Source: Aulosira sp. ZfuVER01 (GTDB lineage Bacteria > Cyanobacteriota > Cyanobacteriia > Cyanobacteriales > Nostocaceae). From it: a stretch of DNA of 12,621 nucleotides. A program made the position numbers and the translations under genes. Below are positions 7,099 to 12,621 of this stretch, in pieces; position 1 is the first letter of the stretch, and every line of letters begins with the position of its first letter. The notes under the pieces are model-generated. The model had not been told where the DNA came from. It did no database searches and saw only the letters and a list, made by a program, of their open reading frames with translations. The DNA is taken from NCBI GenBank assembly GCA_034530615.2, contig JAVRCV020000058.1, positions 1 to 12,621 on the forward strand, given 5' to 3'.

Positions 7099-10000
7099 AT
7101 GAAATCCCAACAAGCAAACAGTAAGCCTAAAATTTTGGTTGTCGATGATGAGCCAGACAACCTTGACTTGCTTTACCGCACCTTTTATCGTGATTACAAG
7201 GTGCTAAGGGCAACTTCTGGTCCTGCAGCACTGGATCTGCTCTCCCAAGAAGGAGAGGTCTCAGTGATCATCTCCGATCAGCGGATGCCAATCATGAGCG
7301 GTACAGAATTTTTGAGTCTGACAGCGACTCAATATCCAGATATTATTCGGATTATCTTAACTGGCTACACCGATGTCGAAGATTTAGTGGAAGCCATTAA
7401 CGCTGGTAAGGTCTTCAAATATGTTACCAAACCGTGGGAAGCCGAGGAACTTAAAGCAGTAGTACGTCAGGCTCTTGATACTCACAATGTTCTCAAAGCC
7501 CGTACTCGTGAATTGACGCGCACACTGCGTCAGGAATCGCTGCTGAATACTGTTACTAATACGATTCGTAGTGCTTTAGACTATCGACAAATTTTACAAG
7601 CAATTGTCGATACAGTGGGTCATATGTTGGAAGTGGATGTCTGTCTTTTACGTCCTTTCCAAGATGGGCAATTGGTTGATGAAGGCTTCATTTACCAGAA
7701 GGTGCCTCAAGAGGTAGCAGGAGAGCTAGCAGATAATGTTTCTGCCTTACCTCTCGGTTCCTTTACCTCTCAAGCCCTATTGGCCCAGACAGTATGGGAA
7801 ACCCGTGAAGTACAAGTTATTCATCATGTTGCAGATGATGAACGCCTCCAAGGCGATACTCCACAACTGCAACAACGTAGCGCCGCTTTTATTGCAGCCA
7901 ACATAAACTCCAGCTTGGTTGTGCCGTTGATTTGTCAACAAGAACTGATGGCAGTTTTGGCATTGCATCAATGCTCCCAGTCTCGTATTTGGCGAGAAGA
8001 GGAAGTGCAGTTGGTGTTGATGGTGGCGGATCAGGCAGCTCTTGCTTTATCTCAAGCCTATACTTACGAACAGGTGCGTGCTCTTGCCATGCGAGAAGCA
8101 CTGATTAATACAATTACTACAGCGATTCGCTCTAGCCTAGATCCTCAAGATATTTTCGCAGCTATTACAGAACAACTGGGACAAGCCTTGCAAGTTAATG
8201 GCTGTGTCCTGTCTTTATGGACAGAAGAAGATGAGTTTGTTGAGTGTGTGGGATTGTATGACAGTTCCCAAAATTTAGAAAACACTATTAAATTAGAACA
8301 GGAAAAGCTATTAAGTAATAATCATCACTATTTGTCACCAGAATTACCCCACTCTCAGGCTCCAATTAAGGAGAATCCGATCCTGCAAGAAATTTTGCGG
8401 ACACAGGAGCCAGTGGTAATTGCTGACATGAGTCATTGTCCTGTAGAAATTCGGGGATTTGATCTGCCTTTAAAAATGCCAGCGCGATCGCTCATGGTTG
8501 TTCCTTTACTGGCTGATGGCAAATGTATCGGTAGTATTACGCTACGTGAAGGTAGCAAATCACGTCGATGGTTAGCTTCGGAAATTGAACTAGCTAAAGC
8601 CGTAGCAGCTCAAGCAGCGATCGCGGTGCAACAATCACGTCTATATCAAACAACTCGCGATCAAGCCGAGCGCTTGTTGCAATTAGATAAACAAAAAACC
8701 GAATTTTTTCAAAATATTTCCCATGAGTTCCGCACTCCGATTACCTTAATTCAAGGGCCTTTAGAGTCAGCGGTAAGTGTTGGTGAGGGGTTATCCTATT
8801 CCCAAAGTGCGATCGCTTTACGTAACTCCCGCCGATTACTCAGACTGGTAAACCAACTCCTAGATTTGCAACGCTTAGATGCTGGGAGGATGCAGCCTAG
8901 TTTCCGTCCCTGTGATTTAGATGAATTTGTCGGTCAAATTGTTGAATCTTTTCGCCCTTACTGCGAGAAAAAGGGACTGCATCTGGTCACAGATTTAGAT
9001 AAATGCCCTCAAGTTTACTTAGACATGGAAAAATTTGACAAAGTAGTTTACAACTTACTGTCAAATGCCATGAAATTCACTCCTGAAGGTGGCAAGATTA
9101 GCGTCAGGCTAATATCTCAAGGAGATAGTTGCATATTACAAGTACAAGATACAGGAATTGGCATTGTTCAAGAACAAATTCCTCACCTATTTGAGCGATT
9201 CCGCCAAGCTGAAGGCTCAGAAAACCGTTCCTATGAAGGTAGTGGTTTGGGTTTGGCTTTAGTCAAAGAATTGGTAGAAATGCACGGGGGTAAAATAACA
9301 GTAGAATCAGTTTACGGTGAGGGTACTAGCTTTACATTATGGCTTTTGATCGGTAGCAGTCACTTACCCGTACAGCAAGTACAAGAAACCCCTTGTGAAC
9401 TAAACACGAGCCGCGCCAGTGTGGAATTGGCTGATTTAGAACTAGTAGACCCAACCATAGAAAATCTTGATAGCTTTGCCAAAGACCTATCAGCTAATGC
9501 TGATACTCGGGAATCTCTAGGCAACAATAATGGCAGTCTCTTGAAGAGTGGACATTCAATTCTCGTCGTAGATGATAATCCAGACTTGCGAACCTATGTA
9601 TCTGATATCATTCGCAGCAATGGCTATCAAGTCCATACTGCTCGTAACGGTGCAGAAGGATTGCAGATAGCTCAGAAAGTCTTACCGAGTTTGATTATCA
9701 CTGACTTAATGATGCCCTTGGTCACAGGGCTAGAAATGATTCGGATGATCCGCAGTGAGGAGAATTTGAAAGGAACACCAATCATTTTGCTCACAGCCAA
9801 AGTTGATGAAGAAACCCGGATTGAAAGCACAGAACATGGTGCTGATGCTTATTTAGCCAAACCATTTAACGATCGCGAACTGCTGGCAGAAGTGAGAAAT
9901 CTCTTAGCCTTGAAAGAAAATGAGCGACGGGTGATAGAGTTAAATACTTATCTGACAGAATCGGTACTAAAACGCTTTTTGCCGCCTGTTTTGGTGAAAA

Positions 10001-10632
10001 AAGCCGCAGCCGGAGATTTGACCTTAGATTTACGACCAGAACCGCGCTTGATTACAGTTTTGTTTAGCGACATAGTTGGTTTTACCCAACTAGCAAATAC
10101 TCTCAGATCCCGACGAGTCGCAGAGTTACTGAATGAGTATTTGGAAGGGATGACAAAGACTGTGTTTGATAATGGCGGTACTGTAGATAAATTTATGGGA
10201 GATGCCATCTTAGCTTTATACGGAGCACCAGAAGAATTAACACCGAATGAGCAGGTGCGTCGTGCCATTAATACAGCAAGGGCCATGCATCGCTCGCTAG
10301 ATCAGTTAAATCAGCGTTGGCGAGACCAAGGTATATTCGACTCTCACGGACATACTGGTGTTAAGTTTCGTTGTGGTATCCATCAAGGTACGGCAGTTGT
10401 GGGAATGTTTGGTAGCGCCGAACGTGCTGACTACACTGCTATTGGCCCAAGTGTCAATATTGCTGCTAGGTTACAAGCTGCCGCTGTTCCCGGTACGATC
10501 TTAGTTTCTGCTGCTGTGGCAGATTATTTACAGGATGAAGAAATTACTAAAGTCAGTCCCTTAGAACTTAAAGGAGTAGATGAAACAGTTCTGACCTTTG
10601 CTGTTACACCAGAAATTATGGTTAATCGTTGA
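7099..10632 (+). CDS. cyaC: Multidomain sensory adenylate cyclase CyaC: REC-GAF-GAF-HisKA-HATPase-REC-class III cyclase
   Basis: REC1 ILVVDDE/IISDQRMP; two GAF domains (LVVPL...LALHQC, LMVVPLL...ITLRE); H-box NISHEFRTP; N, G1 and G2 boxes (NLLSNAMKFT, DTGIGI, GSGLGLAL); REC2 IITDLMMP; cyclase VLFSDIVGFT, DKFMGD, DYTAIGPSVNIAARLQ. AGGA lies upstream of the ATG. Confidence 0.95.
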   Translation: MKSQQANSKPKILVVDDEPDNLDLLYRTFYRDYKVLRATSGPAALDLLSQEGEVSVIISDQRMPIMSGTEFLSLTATQYPDIIRIILTGYTDVEDLVEAINAGKVFKYVTKPWEAEELKAVVRQALDTHNVLKARTRELTRTLRQESLLNTVTNTIRSALDYRQILQAIVDTVGHMLEVDVCLLRPFQDGQLVDEGFIYQKVPQEVAGELADNVSALPLGSFTSQALLAQTVWETREVQVIHHVADDERLQGDTPQLQQRSAAFIAANINSSLVVPLICQQELMAVLALHQCSQSRIWREEEVQLVLMVADQAALALSQAYTYEQVRALAMREALINTITTAIRSSLDPQDIFAAITEQLGQALQVNGCVLSLWTEEDEFVECVGLYDSSQNLENTIKLEQEKLLSNNHHYLSPELPHSQAPIKENPILQEILRTQEPVVIADMSHCPVEIRGFDLPLKMPARSLMVVPLLADGKCIGSITLREGSKSRRWLASEIELAKAVAAQAAIAVQQSRLYQTTRDQAERLLQLDKQKTEFFQNISHEFRTPITLIQGPLESAVSVGEGLSYSQSAIALRNSRRLLRLVNQLLDLQRLDAGRMQPSFRPCDLDEFVGQIVESFRPYCEKKGLHLVTDLDKCPQVYLDMEKFDKVVYNLLSNAMKFTPEGGKISVRLISQGDSCILQVQDTGIGIVQEQIPHLFERFRQAEGSENRSYEGSGLGLALVKELVEMHGGKITVESVYGEGTSFTLWLLIGSSHLPVQQVQETPCELNTSRASVELADLELVDPTIENLDSFAKDLSANADTRESLGNNNGSLLKSGHSILVVDDNPDLRTYVSDIIRSNGYQVHTARNGAEGLQIAQKVLPSLIITDLMMPLVTGLEMIRMIRSEENLKGTPIILLTAKVDEETRIESTEHGADAYLAKPFNDRELLAEVRNLLALKENERRVIELNTYLTESVLKRFLPPVLVKKAAAGDLTLDLRPEPRLITVLFSDIVGFTQLANTLRSRRVAELLNEYLEGMTKTVFDNGGTVDKFMGDAILALYGAPEELTPNEQVRRAINTARAMHRSLDQLNQRWRDQGIFDSHGHTGVKFRCGIHQGTAVVGMFGSAERADYTAIGPSVNIAARLQAAAVPGTILVSAAVADYLQDEEITKVSPLELKGVDETVLTFAVTPEIMVNR

Positions 10633-10707
10633 GAGTAGACTGGATTTTAAAGCGTTAATTTAGTAAAGGGTAATAGCGCAAAATTTAGATCCAGTTAGAA
10701 ATTCAAT

Positions 10708-11763
10708 ATGACACAATCGGTTGCAGATAAAACTTCAATTCTACCAAAGGACTGGAGAAGACATACAGATCCACCTAGTTTATGGATTGCTGTAGTCATA
10801 GGTTCAGTCACCCTGCACTTATTGGTGTTTTGGCTGTTACGCTCATATCAGTCAAGTTTACTATGGCGACAGCAAAACAAAAGTACTATTCCGATTGAGG
10901 TTGTAGAAATTTCTTCTCCAACGAAATTAAAAAAACCTGCGGCTTCTAAACCCAAATCATTATCATCAAAGCCTTTATCCACAAAATTAGAACCAAAACA
11001 TTTATCTAAACCTTTAGTTCCAGCAGATAAATTAATAACAAAACCCAACCCGACTAATCAAGATAACAATGCTGTAGCTTTTGCCGAGCAACGCCAGCGC
11101 CAATTGGCTGAACAACAGCAACGCGAACTCGCTGAACAGCGCCAACGACAACTGGCTGAACAACAGCAACGCCAACTCGCTGAGTACCGTCAACGGCAAC
11201 TAGCTGAACAACAGCAACGCGAATTGGCTGAGTACCGTCAACGACAACTAGCTGAACAACAGCAACGCGAATTGGCTGAGTACCGTCAACGACAACTAGC
11301 TGAACAACAGCAACGCGAACTAGACAAAAAATCTCCAGAAGAAGGTAGTCAAGAAAGGCTACCGCCTCCAAAAACTCAGTCTGGGGGAGGACTGTTTGCG
11401 TTCTGGGTTCCTATGAGTGAAGAGGAGCAGAGGGGATTGATGCGATCGCCTTTACCACCGGATTTGAAGCTAGCTGAACATATCGGCAGTAACGAAAAAA
11501 AAGTTGAGTCAATTGACATCAACCGCAACCTCGATCTTCCTGTAGTAGATTTTTTAGTATCCTTAGTCATTGATAACACTGGCAAGTTTATAGAAGCTGA
11601 GGTTATAGACCCAAAAATACCCGCAGACCAAAGAAGTAAGTATGAGGACTATGCTAACGATGTTTTTCAAGGTGAGAAATTTCAGCCAGCCTACTTCCCT
11701 GACGGCAAAACACCACCAGAATTAACCAATCGGTTTGTACGTCTCAAAATCGAACGCCGATAG
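10708..11763 (+). CDS. Membrane-anchored TonB/TolA-like protein with a Gln/Arg/Glu-rich helical repeat
   Basis: Single N-terminal TM helix with S-x3-H (IAVVIGSVTLHLLVFWLL), then IPIEVVEI, a Pro/Lys-rich linker, ten 8-aa repeats, and a C-terminal domain VSLVIDNTGKFIEAEV...FQPAY resembling TonB_C. Confidence 0.7.
   Translation: MTQSVADKTSILPKDWRRHTDPPSLWIAVVIGSVTLHLLVFWLLRSYQSSLLWRQQNKSTIPIEVVEISSPTKLKKPAASKPKSLSSKPLSTKLEPKHLSKPLVPADKLITKPNPTNQDNNAVAFAEQRQRQLAEQQQRELAEQRQRQLAEQQQRQLAEYRQRQLAEQQQRELAEYRQRQLAEQQQRELAEYRQRQLAEQQQRELDKKSPEEGSQERLPPPKTQSGGGLFAFWVPMSEEEQRGLMRSPLPPDLKLAEHIGSNEKKVESIDINRNLDLPVVDFLVSLVIDNTGKFIEAEVIDPKIPADQRSKYEDYANDVFQGEKFQPAYFPDGKTPPELTNRFVRLKIERR
11083..11322 (+). 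repeat. Coding tandem repeat: ten 24-bp units with a 48-bp higher-order period
   Basis: Units encode AE(Q/Y)RQRQL alternating with AEQQQR(E/Q)L. The last three 48-bp pairs (11179-11322) are nearly identical. Confidence 0.95.
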
Positions 11764-11777
11764 CTGGGACTAGGTAC

Positions 11778-11806
11778 TTGAATTATCATTAATGCTGTGC
11801 TAAACT
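11778..11806 (+). promoter_or_regulatory. Sigma70-type promoter of tRNA-Gly
   Basis: TTGAAT (11778-11783), 17-bp spacer, extended -10 TGcTAAACT (hexamer 11801-11806), ending 17 bp before the tRNA. Confidence 0.65.
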
Positions 11807-11823
11807 TTTAAAGTTGGCAATTT

Positions 11824-11894
11824 GCGGGCGTAGTTTAGTGGTAAAACTATAGCCTTCCAAGCTATTAATGCGGGTTCGATTCCCGCCGCCCGCT
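11824..11894 (+). tRNA. tRNA-Gly(TCC), CCA not encoded
   Basis: Acceptor stem GCGGGCG/CGCCCGC with discriminator T, D arm GTTT-AGTGGTA-AAAC, anticodon arm ATAGC-CTTCCAA-GCTAT (TCC at 11856-11858), T arm GCGGG-TTCGATT-CCCGC. Confidence 0.97.
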
Positions 11895-11902
11895 TAATCA
11901 GT

Positions 11903-11944
11903 AAAACCCCTGAAAGAATTACCTTTCAGGGGTTTTTTACTTTT
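11903..11944 (+). terminator. Rho-independent terminator, probably bidirectional
   Basis: Perfect 14-bp stem AAAACCCCTGAAAG/CTTTCAGGGGTTTT, 6-nt loop, T-rich tail. Confidence 0.88.
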
Positions 11945-11962
11945 GATCGATAGCTTATAATT

Positions 11963-11976
11963 AGTACATGAGTTCT
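11963..11976. promoter_or_regulatory. Cyanobacterial LexA-type box next to a TATAAT hexamer
   Basis: AGTAC-ATG-AGTTCT fits the Anabaena LexA consensus RGTACNNNDGTWCB; TATAAT lies at 11956-11961. Confidence 0.55.
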
Positions 11977-11992
11977 ACTTTTATTCCAAAAA

Positions 11993-12030
11993 TTGGGGCA
12001 GGTTGGGTTAGTTTGGGTGCGAATTGGGTG
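11993..12030 (+). repeat. Four phased TTGGG direct repeats
   Basis: TTGGG starts at 11993, 12003, 12013 and 12024 (spacing 10, 10, 11). Confidence 0.7.
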
Positions 12031-12335
12031 TAGCTTTAAATTTACTCAATTGCCGTATAGTCGTATGTGCTGGCGACGAAGACTTTGGTAAGCCCTATGC
12101 TTTGCGAGTTTTACATAGCCCAGCTTTAAAAATTCAGGACAACTATAATCCCAATCTTTGCGGCAAGGTCGGCAGACCACCAGTTAAACCTTCACCAGTC
12201 TGGATTGCTGATCTAGGCGAATACCAATTAGTGACGATTTTTGGCGCTATTAGCGACCCACGCAAAAAGTATTTAACTGAATTACGCGATCGCACTTCTG
12301 GTCAAAGCTACTTTCAAATTTATCCTTTAACTTAA
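12024..12335 (+). pseudogene. 5'-truncated gene remnant resembling the C-terminus of a cyanobacterial type III-B CRISPR RAMP protein (Cmr1 or Cmr6-Cmr1 fusion-like)
   Basis: No ATG or RBS: the TTG lies inside a TTGGG repeat and an in-frame TAG sits at 12009-12011. Protein-like sequence runs from NCRIVVC (~12048) and includes NLCG...KPSPVWIADLGEYQLVTIFGA...DPRKKYL. It stops 7 bp before the next ATG. Family assignment is from recall only. Confidence 0.5.
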
Positions 12336-12342
12336 TATCTCT

Positions 12343-12621
12343 ATGAAAGCCGTTTTAATTGCAACAATTGGTACTAGAGATTTAATGTTTCAAATTTCCT
12401 CTGGTACTTGGTATAACATTGGCGATGATCGAATGCAAAACGGAGAGATAATCGGCGAACAAGCAGAGGTAATTTCTGACCATAGGCTACATAATATCAG
12501 TTATCGAAATTTAATAAATATTTAGTAGATAAAATTACAATTTATCAACAGCGAGTTAAGCCAGTCATTATTGGTAAGCTACTTAGTGAAAAAGCCACAG
12601 ATATAGAGAAAGTCTATTTAA
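12343..12621 (+). pseudogene. Frameshifted CARF-like (CRISPR-associated Rossmann fold) gene, continuing beyond the window
   Basis: Starts MKAVLIATIGTRD. Frame 0 stops at 12523-12525, but the -1 frame from 12516 reads KYLVDKITIYQQRVKPVIIGKLLSEKATDIEKVYL open to the window end, implying a 1-nt deletion near 12514-12516. Confidence 0.6.

Follow-up and report, generated by a model that had tools for sequence, protein, structure and literature searches.

A probable decayed integrase element at tRNA-Gly(TCC) in Aulosira sp. ZfuVER01, with the tail of a type III-Bv CRISPR operon and a frameshifted CARF-HEPN gene

The 3' edge of contig C58 in the genome of Aulosira sp. ZfuVER01 (8.03 Mb in 83 contigs) is, judged from its sequence and from intact counterparts elsewhere, the broken left end of a mobile element inserted at a tRNA, with the integrase and most of the CRISPR genes gone. 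The window analysed is the whole of this contig, 12,621 nt, and directly readable sequence stops with the contig at 12621. We hold with good confidence that an integrase element at tRNA-Gly decayed through a deletion of some 19 kb, that its CARF-HEPN gene was afterwards frameshifted and that what is left is a silent remnant. The features which the earlier note had listed here (tRNA, hairpin, LexA-type box, TTGGG repeats, headless gene, 7-nt gap and frameshifted gene) are all present, so its observation is confirmed, and its reading of the contig edge is supported by the comparisons given below.

An intact tRNA-Gly(TCC) gene (11824-11894, + strand, called by ARAGORN) stands at the left attachment site, attL, and the att core of 47 bp (11850-11896, + strand) extends from the anticodon stem to just beyond the tRNA 3' end. 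Presumably the crossover lay at the anticodon loop, a class with which a core starting in the anticodon stem would fit. A BLAST search of 11801-12621 against the genome returned an exact 47-bp duplicate of the core at C43:9299-9345 (attR) with a similar hairpin after it, and this is the second att site that had been predicted from the window. The arrangement is that of a tRNA island, with the intact tRNA at one end and its 3' part repeated at the other, and the relative G003 has the same pair of cores about 45 kb apart. In the read contigs of all three runs from a single study the inner flank of attR is visible as a loose end ahead of 11850. The two ends sit on separate contigs that the assembly leaves unjoined and are linked here through synteny with G001, G003, G011 and G013. 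C43 retains a module of HNH and RAMP-like genes that is 89-91% identical to the one in the G003 tRNA-Gly element, the host genes flanking attR are the same on C43 and in G003, and in G001, G011 and G013 those host genes are found at most 0.5 kb from the tRNA. Because of the att duplicate, the repeats inside both ends, the G003-like module and the shared host genes, C58 and C43 are most likely the two ends of one element.

The surroundings of the insertion have features of their own. The host genes after attR (G000:C43:10168-13072, G000 being the ZfuVER01 genome) match PADLOC SngB (E 2e-178) and SngA, and on these matches the vicinity of tRNA-Gly could represent a defence locus of older date. 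Ahead of the tRNA the window encodes a multidomain signalling protein of 1177 aa (7099-10632), in which receiver, GAF, kinase and cyclase-like parts were recognised by eye, and then a 351-aa protein (10708-11763) that likely has a membrane anchor and contains Gln/Arg-rich repeats of 13 residues in tandem, for which there was no Pfam match above the cut-off; genes similar to the latter sit ahead of the tRNA in relatives.

The arm of the element begins with a hairpin of 14 pairs with A and T runs (11903-11936, + strand), which is likely the terminator of the tRNA carried on the element. A hairpin scan found one such structure against 0.9 ± 1.0 in shuffled sequence, and so by itself it is not beyond chance; it is conserved with stem changes in six aligned relatives, and similar hairpins follow the tRNA-Phe att sites as well as attR. 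A putative LexA-type operator (11963-11976) then matches strictly the consensus given for Nostoc, RGTACNNNDGTWCB (PMC3091678). Across the 8.03 Mb of the genome there are 64 copies of the strict motif, and of 20,000 windows of 156 nt drawn at random 27 contained it; the box has the same position in six aligned relatives, strictly in two and with one mismatch in four. A host lexA gene is present whose own box equals that listed for Nostoc PCC 7120, which together with the HIP1 richness of the genome fits a Nostoc-like host. The two marks of a cyanobacterial LexA regulon, a consensus box ahead of a gene and a host lexA, are found together, and the box probably controlled the lost integrase. LexA control as a general trait of these integrases was also considered and is not supported over 36 loci (a box with at least 8 of 10 positions in 12 of 36, background 12%; with at least 9 of 10 in 5 of 36, background 1.4%).

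Last in the arm come four phased TTGGG repeats (11993-12031, + strand) starting at 11993, 12003, 12013 and 12024, spaced by 10, 10 and 11. Four copies on one strand turned up in 35 of 20,000 random windows, and the paired 8-mer repeat pattern is found genome-wide only at C58:12013 and C43:9232. Just inside attR two repeats lie at offsets of -72 and -61 from the core, equally on C43 and in G003. Lambda-family integrases typically have arm-type sites in the form of direct repeats inside both ends, and an Arm-DNA-bind_2 domain is present in the G003 integrase. At the level of sequence, repeats of this type are present within both ends of the element, and the TTGGG copies may well be arm-type integrase binding sites.

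Among 14 relatives in the genus the arm follows this tRNA in seven (G001, G003, G004, G011, G012, G013 and, with an insertion, G009), two have the hairpin without the TTGGG arm, and in five the tRNA leads directly to a shikimate-kinase-like gene (named by eye); these genomes are kin, and arm scars in them are not necessarily independent. A direct search for the arm in 300 genomes recovered five of these 14 and one genome outside the genus. The integrase is retained only in G003 among the arm-bearing relatives, G004 and G009 having weak stubs (E 0.07 and 0.05). The comparison behind tRNA-Gly proposed in the earlier note came out in its favour, the cmr tail described below occurring at this site in 0 of the 14. 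The island edge that it had seen holds as regards the element itself, although terminator, LexA box and TTGGG repeats together make up the att arm, which half of these relatives share. In G004 the att sites of the tRNA-Gly element (C1:852393 and C1:765962-766018) are 86 kb apart in inverted orientation, and the right one adjoins the gene found after the tRNA in empty genomes, an arrangement that suggests an inversion.

Beyond the arm the headless frame (12048-12335, + strand) comprises the last 95 codons, with no start of their own, of a Cmr6-Cmr1 fusion gene of type III-Bv. It was identified through the intact gene on contig C5 because the fragment alone, 103 aa as translated, has no Pfam, PADLOC or NCBIfam match; the C5 gene encodes 662 aa and matches both the Cmr6 and the Cmr1 models, and the tail is first 84% and then 96% identical to it in DNA. 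To the RAMP tail of pSYSA it is 33% identical (E 6e-13), and the RAMP tail suspected at the outset has so been given a family. Its stop (12333-12335) and the next ATG (12343) leave the same 7-nt gap as in the intact copy. The 15 nt missing from one loop of the tail were not taken as evidence of decay, since several intact homologues also have the short loop. These codons are all that the window holds of the III-Bv operon. The HIP1 octamer within them (12286-12293), once taken to mark a cyanobacterial origin, is uninformative in a HIP1-rich host (0.96 per kb, at which a stretch of 727 nt is expected to hold one), being at background frequency and having a counterpart in the C5 copy.

Homology to the intact cmr gene begins abruptly at 12048, and the deletion junction, at which a few bases fit both parents, is placed at 12048-12054, close to the end near 12045 that had been proposed. 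In the arm alignment it falls where the G003 integrase begins. The deletion is estimated to have removed about 19 kb, since the integrase start and the corresponding place in cmr6/1 are separated by 18.7 kb on C5 and by about 19 kb in G003. No close copy of a tRNA-Gly integrase is in the assembly, the best relative there being the tRNA-Phe enzyme at 44% identity; the integrase is missing beside the att site in the window and present at the aligned position in G003, which we read as loss, as the earlier note did.

Two intact templates bear on what stood here. The sister element at tRNA-Phe on C5 runs through integrase, excisionase, primase-helicase, WYL gene, csx18-cas1-cas2, array, cas10-cmr3-4-5-6/1 and CARF gene, and 12048-12621 matches C5:590-1 at 92%. 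It is apparently an intact integrase element (G000:C5:1-19640, locus L001, with its right end on C8 at 227928-228012) that holds a complete III-Bv system and an array of 20 repeats; the right part on C8 includes an open frame of more than 4300 aa whose repeats were judged by eye to be RTX/Calx-beta-like. The operon, the csx18-cas1-cas2 genes and the CRISPR3-like repeat are those of type III-Bv. The cas6 profile PF10040 matches only on C46, C33, C22 and C1 and nowhere at the C5 III-Bv locus as assembled, the stretch after the CARF gene being unassembled, and by its sequence the C5 system is a cas6-less III-Bv of the Synechocystis type, already known. The type III CRISPR module of the earlier note can thus be named III-Bv, with the correction that no cas6, cas1, cas2 or array is left at the remnant, the intact copy lying on this second element; the PADLOC check that it had proposed gave the CARF1 match described below for the second gene. 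The 19 C5 spacers have no full match in their own genome. The spacer nearest cas2 (G000:C5:9359-9404) resembles a tRNA T-arm and matches a tRNA array on C32 in 17 of 17 bases (E 0.013), a match too short for self-targeting to be accepted; that array (G000:C32:178953-181569) has 28 genes and includes a second tRNA-Gly(TCC). The C5 primase found nothing among viral contigs.

The tRNA-Gly element of G003 is complete and reads, from the left, integrase, 260-aa ORF, excisionase, primase-helicase, 359-aa ORF, WYL gene, csx18, cas1, cas2, array, cas10, cmr3, cmr4, cmr5, cmr6/1 and CARF-HEPN gene, followed by a DruE-like helicase module, the HNH and RAMP-like module and vWA-MoxR-type genes. Capsid, terminase and conjugation genes were not found in the 21 of its 30 ORFs of at least 80 aa that were compared with Pfam, several of which are without a family; of the others eight are cas or WYL genes and one is an antisense frame.

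The course of events that we propose starts with a tyrosine-integrase element that would have entered tRNA-Gly(TCC) so that the tRNA was rebuilt at the left end of the element and the 47-bp duplicate remained at the right, a step still legible in the sequence. The ancestral layout of arm, LexA box and integrase, with cas10-cmr, CARF-HEPN and cargo further on, is seen in G003 and C5 and would have been that of the C58 copy. A single deletion, its junction observed and its size estimated as above, would have fused the integrase start to the cmr6/1 tail, and would have both immobilised the element and taken away the CRISPR machinery. The orphaned CARF-HEPN gene, made redundant by its counterpart on the element at tRNA-Phe, would then have been frameshifted by one base, probably in this order, and through recombination or gene conversion the two elements would have come to have nearly identical CARF regions. 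The sole role remaining to the remnant is most likely that of a terminator behind the tRNA.

Identity to C5 rises along the remnant from 84% (12048-12145) through 95-96% (12146-12566) to 100% (12567 on), the two copies having probably been made alike in their 3' part by later exchange. Over 188 codons there are 20 synonymous and 10 non-synonymous changes (9 to 2 within the CARF gene); the changes being mostly synonymous, both copies would therefore have diverged while functional and the frameshift would be recent. Two findings count against decay of a full element: the G003 tRNA-Gly element has different cmr4, cmr5, cmr6/1 and CARF alleles, and the best match of the remnant among 301 genomes is the C5 copy of its own genome (92%), which fits copying from C5. 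Such copying, an unlikely alternative in our estimation, would mean that the tRNA-Gly site had no more than an old arm scar or an element free of CRISPR genes, into which the cmr tail and CARF gene came illegitimately from the tRNA-Phe element, and that a full operon of this allele was never here; the roughly 1.9 kb past 12567 that seem almost exactly common to both copies and the frequency of integrase-less arms at this tRNA-Gly (6 of 14 relatives) would go well with it. It sits badly with the first 98 nt, which are only 84% identical to C5 and include an in-frame indel of 15 nt within a loop that is variable between homologues, with a preponderance of synonymous changes unexpected for a fragment dead from the outset, and with the persistence of both element ends and the G003-like module.

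Under the deletion and decay that we prefer, the last gene of the window is what remains of a once functional effector. The 5' part of a CARF1-HEPN gene (12343-12621, + strand, cut by the contig end) matches PADLOC model PDLC01795 (E 2.4e-10), as the earlier note's suggestion of an inactivated CARF effector would have it. Relative to the C5 copy one base is missing after 12514, which brings in a stop at 12523-12525 and leaves 60 aa, the first 47 of 449 model positions. An N-terminal CARF domain is indicated by PDLC01795 on the window fragment and on the full length of three homologues (487-491 aa, 444-464 bits, n=3), which have R-X4-H at the C-terminal side and are 73-89% identical over the first 93 aa; the matching DNA of ZfuVER01 is absent from the assembly. 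The homologues fall below the NCBIfam cut-off for Csm6 (39 vs 150 bits). In G022 (L032:8300-9886) a further broken copy of this CARF gene, internally deleted, is followed by the C-terminal end of the other CARF type and is, as its sequence reads, a trace of module replacement.

It is very improbable that the remnant is active, with a LexA-controlled promoter in the arm making a short CARF peptide or read-through product that tunes cOA signalling by the C5 system. The perfect match of the LexA box, the open frame that continues from 12024 through the tail and the GGDD motif kept in the C5 Cas10 would suit such a role; against them stand the brevity of the frameshifted product, a promoter scan that called no sigma-70-type promoter on the + strand, and the C58 junction, seen in no other genome searched.

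Read contigs of four runs were compared with 10600-12621, of which the fourth gave scraps only; the three that support the sequence belong to one study, and the assembly may have been built from them; run X4 and other low-share runs, having the tRNA or a relative only, were excluded. The least probable reading, that junction or frameshift is an assembly error derived from the near-identical C5 copy, might be suggested by C58 ending in a collapsed repeat common to C5 and is largely refuted by a 373-nt read contig that spans the junction (11867-12239) with 0 differences and near single-copy depth in 3 of 3 runs, and by alleles at 12514 in a ratio of about 1:1 (681 vs 804, 122 vs 128 and 181 vs 190).

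The contig end itself can be followed somewhat further. The last 55 nt of the window (12567-12621, + strand) are identical to the end of C5 and form the start of a repeat common to both and missing from the assembly, and a 1879-nt read contig from 12567 has about twice the single-copy depth (run X2). The rest of the CARF gene was not found in the assembly with the profile and three homologues as queries, and a near-identical two-copy repeat dropped from the assembly is the simplest reading. The exit of this repeat from C58 was not found among 30 contig ends, which had no match to related loci, or in 17 contig-end pairs compared, which gave no clear cargo. Collapsed repeats can in this way lose effector genes from assemblies.

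The closest known system to that on C5 is III-Bv CRISPR3 of Synechocystis sp. PCC 6803 (pSYSA, NC_005230.1), with identities of 55% for Cas10, 53% for Cmr3, 62% for Cmr4, 62% for Cmr5, 46% for Cmr6/1, 62% for Cas1 and 65% for Cas2, and with repeats identical in 29 of 36 nt that share the 5' stem-loop. Both are without cas6, on C5 at the assembled locus, and crRNA maturation in the Synechocystis III-Bv is described as the work of RNase E and J (PMC12464536). In contrast to CRISPR3 the C5 and G003 systems are carried in the chromosome by integrase elements that target tRNA genes and include a WYL gene; they have the CARF1-HEPN gene directly behind cmr6/1 and have cas1-cas2-array in the same direction as cas10, and the window keeps only the cmr6/1 tail and a broken effector. 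SyCsx1, a CARF-HEPN RNase of Synechocystis from a different subfamily, is cA4-activated and has a DxTHG motif (PMC9676260). The full-length homologues share with such type III effectors the N-terminal CARF and C-terminal R-X4-H, and by analogy we infer for them a ligand and an RNase activity; in contrast to SyCsx1 they read without DxTHG, and the C58 copy is frameshifted.

In layout the elements recall the tycheposons of Prochlorococcus, described (bioRxiv 10.1101/2020.12.28.424599) as combining a tRNA-targeting tyrosine recombinase, a partial-tRNA repeat, excisionase, primase/helicase and cargo; C5 and G003 have that set of integrase, excisionase and primase/helicase, without capsid or conjugation genes. 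As with tycheposons and PICI-like elements, degenerate fragments are common and control by DNA damage plausible. Unlike the 10-20 kb of tycheposons, the G003 element has about 45 kb between att cores, and a full CRISPR system, other defence-type cargo and filamentous cyanobacterial hosts also set these elements apart. They would work like a cargo-carrying tycheposon but are not classed as such, the size being out of range and the likeness so far one of layout.

The tRNA-Phe III-Bv locus of Chlorogloeopsis fritschii PCC 6912 (L062, L099) has the same arm layout and no integrase. Its deletion, like that of C58, begins right after the arm repeats and takes the integrase; it halts at the WYL gene and so spares cas genes, array and CARF gene, whereas that of C58 removes cas genes and array. 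More widely, C5-type Cas10 is encoded in 56 of 301 genomes of the family, and up to 20 kb upstream of cas10 was taken for 38 of the 56. Of these regions 28 have a Cas1 at 72-84% identity to that of C5 and gave 0 integrase matches with two queries (22 of the 28 being full 20-kb regions), one has a Cas1 at 97% with integrase and tRNA-Phe, and nine have no Cas1 match. Loci with a Cas1 at least 94% identical to that of C5 lie at a tRNA arm in five cases of five, among them C5, G003, Nostoc sp. TH1S01 and PCC 6912; the count is not unbiased, as the tRNA or the genome under study itself led to two of the five. These five cases suggest that a lineage of tRNA-targeting elements carries III-Bv across genera. 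We lean, by a little, towards an undescribed and recently spreading tycheposon-like lineage at tRNA-Gly and tRNA-Phe, LexA-switched, with a complete III-Bv and adaptation module, swapping of cmr and CARF genes, and repeated grounding deletions from the integrase start that would leave either a fixed locus (PCC 6912) or a scar (C58, 6 of 14 relatives). A literature search, mainly of freely accessible papers and of titles and the beginnings of abstracts, gave no type III CRISPR on tRNA-integrated cyanobacterial elements. The C58 remnant itself is ordinary decay of a known CRISPR subtype and matters little, save as a clean example for reading an att arm; its intact relatives point to a way in which complete III-Bv systems could pass between cyanobacterial genera and then be fixed or lost, and this lineage is the only part that deserves follow-up.

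Two further observations concern the right parts of these elements. Adjacent to HNH, on C43 (G000:C43:6157-7551) and in G003 (L027:4230-6524), lies a module encoding a 206-aa protein that ends in a glycine-rich RAMP-like loop; the protein had no Pfam, PADLOC or NCBIfam match and a weak one to a PHROG of unknown function, and the module is truncated in ZfuVER01. An apparently non-coding block of about 290 nt, 77-78% identical, recurs in four related elements close to their right ends (G000:C43:7932-8223, C8:228227-228485, L027:3550-3828 and L062:13381-13644).
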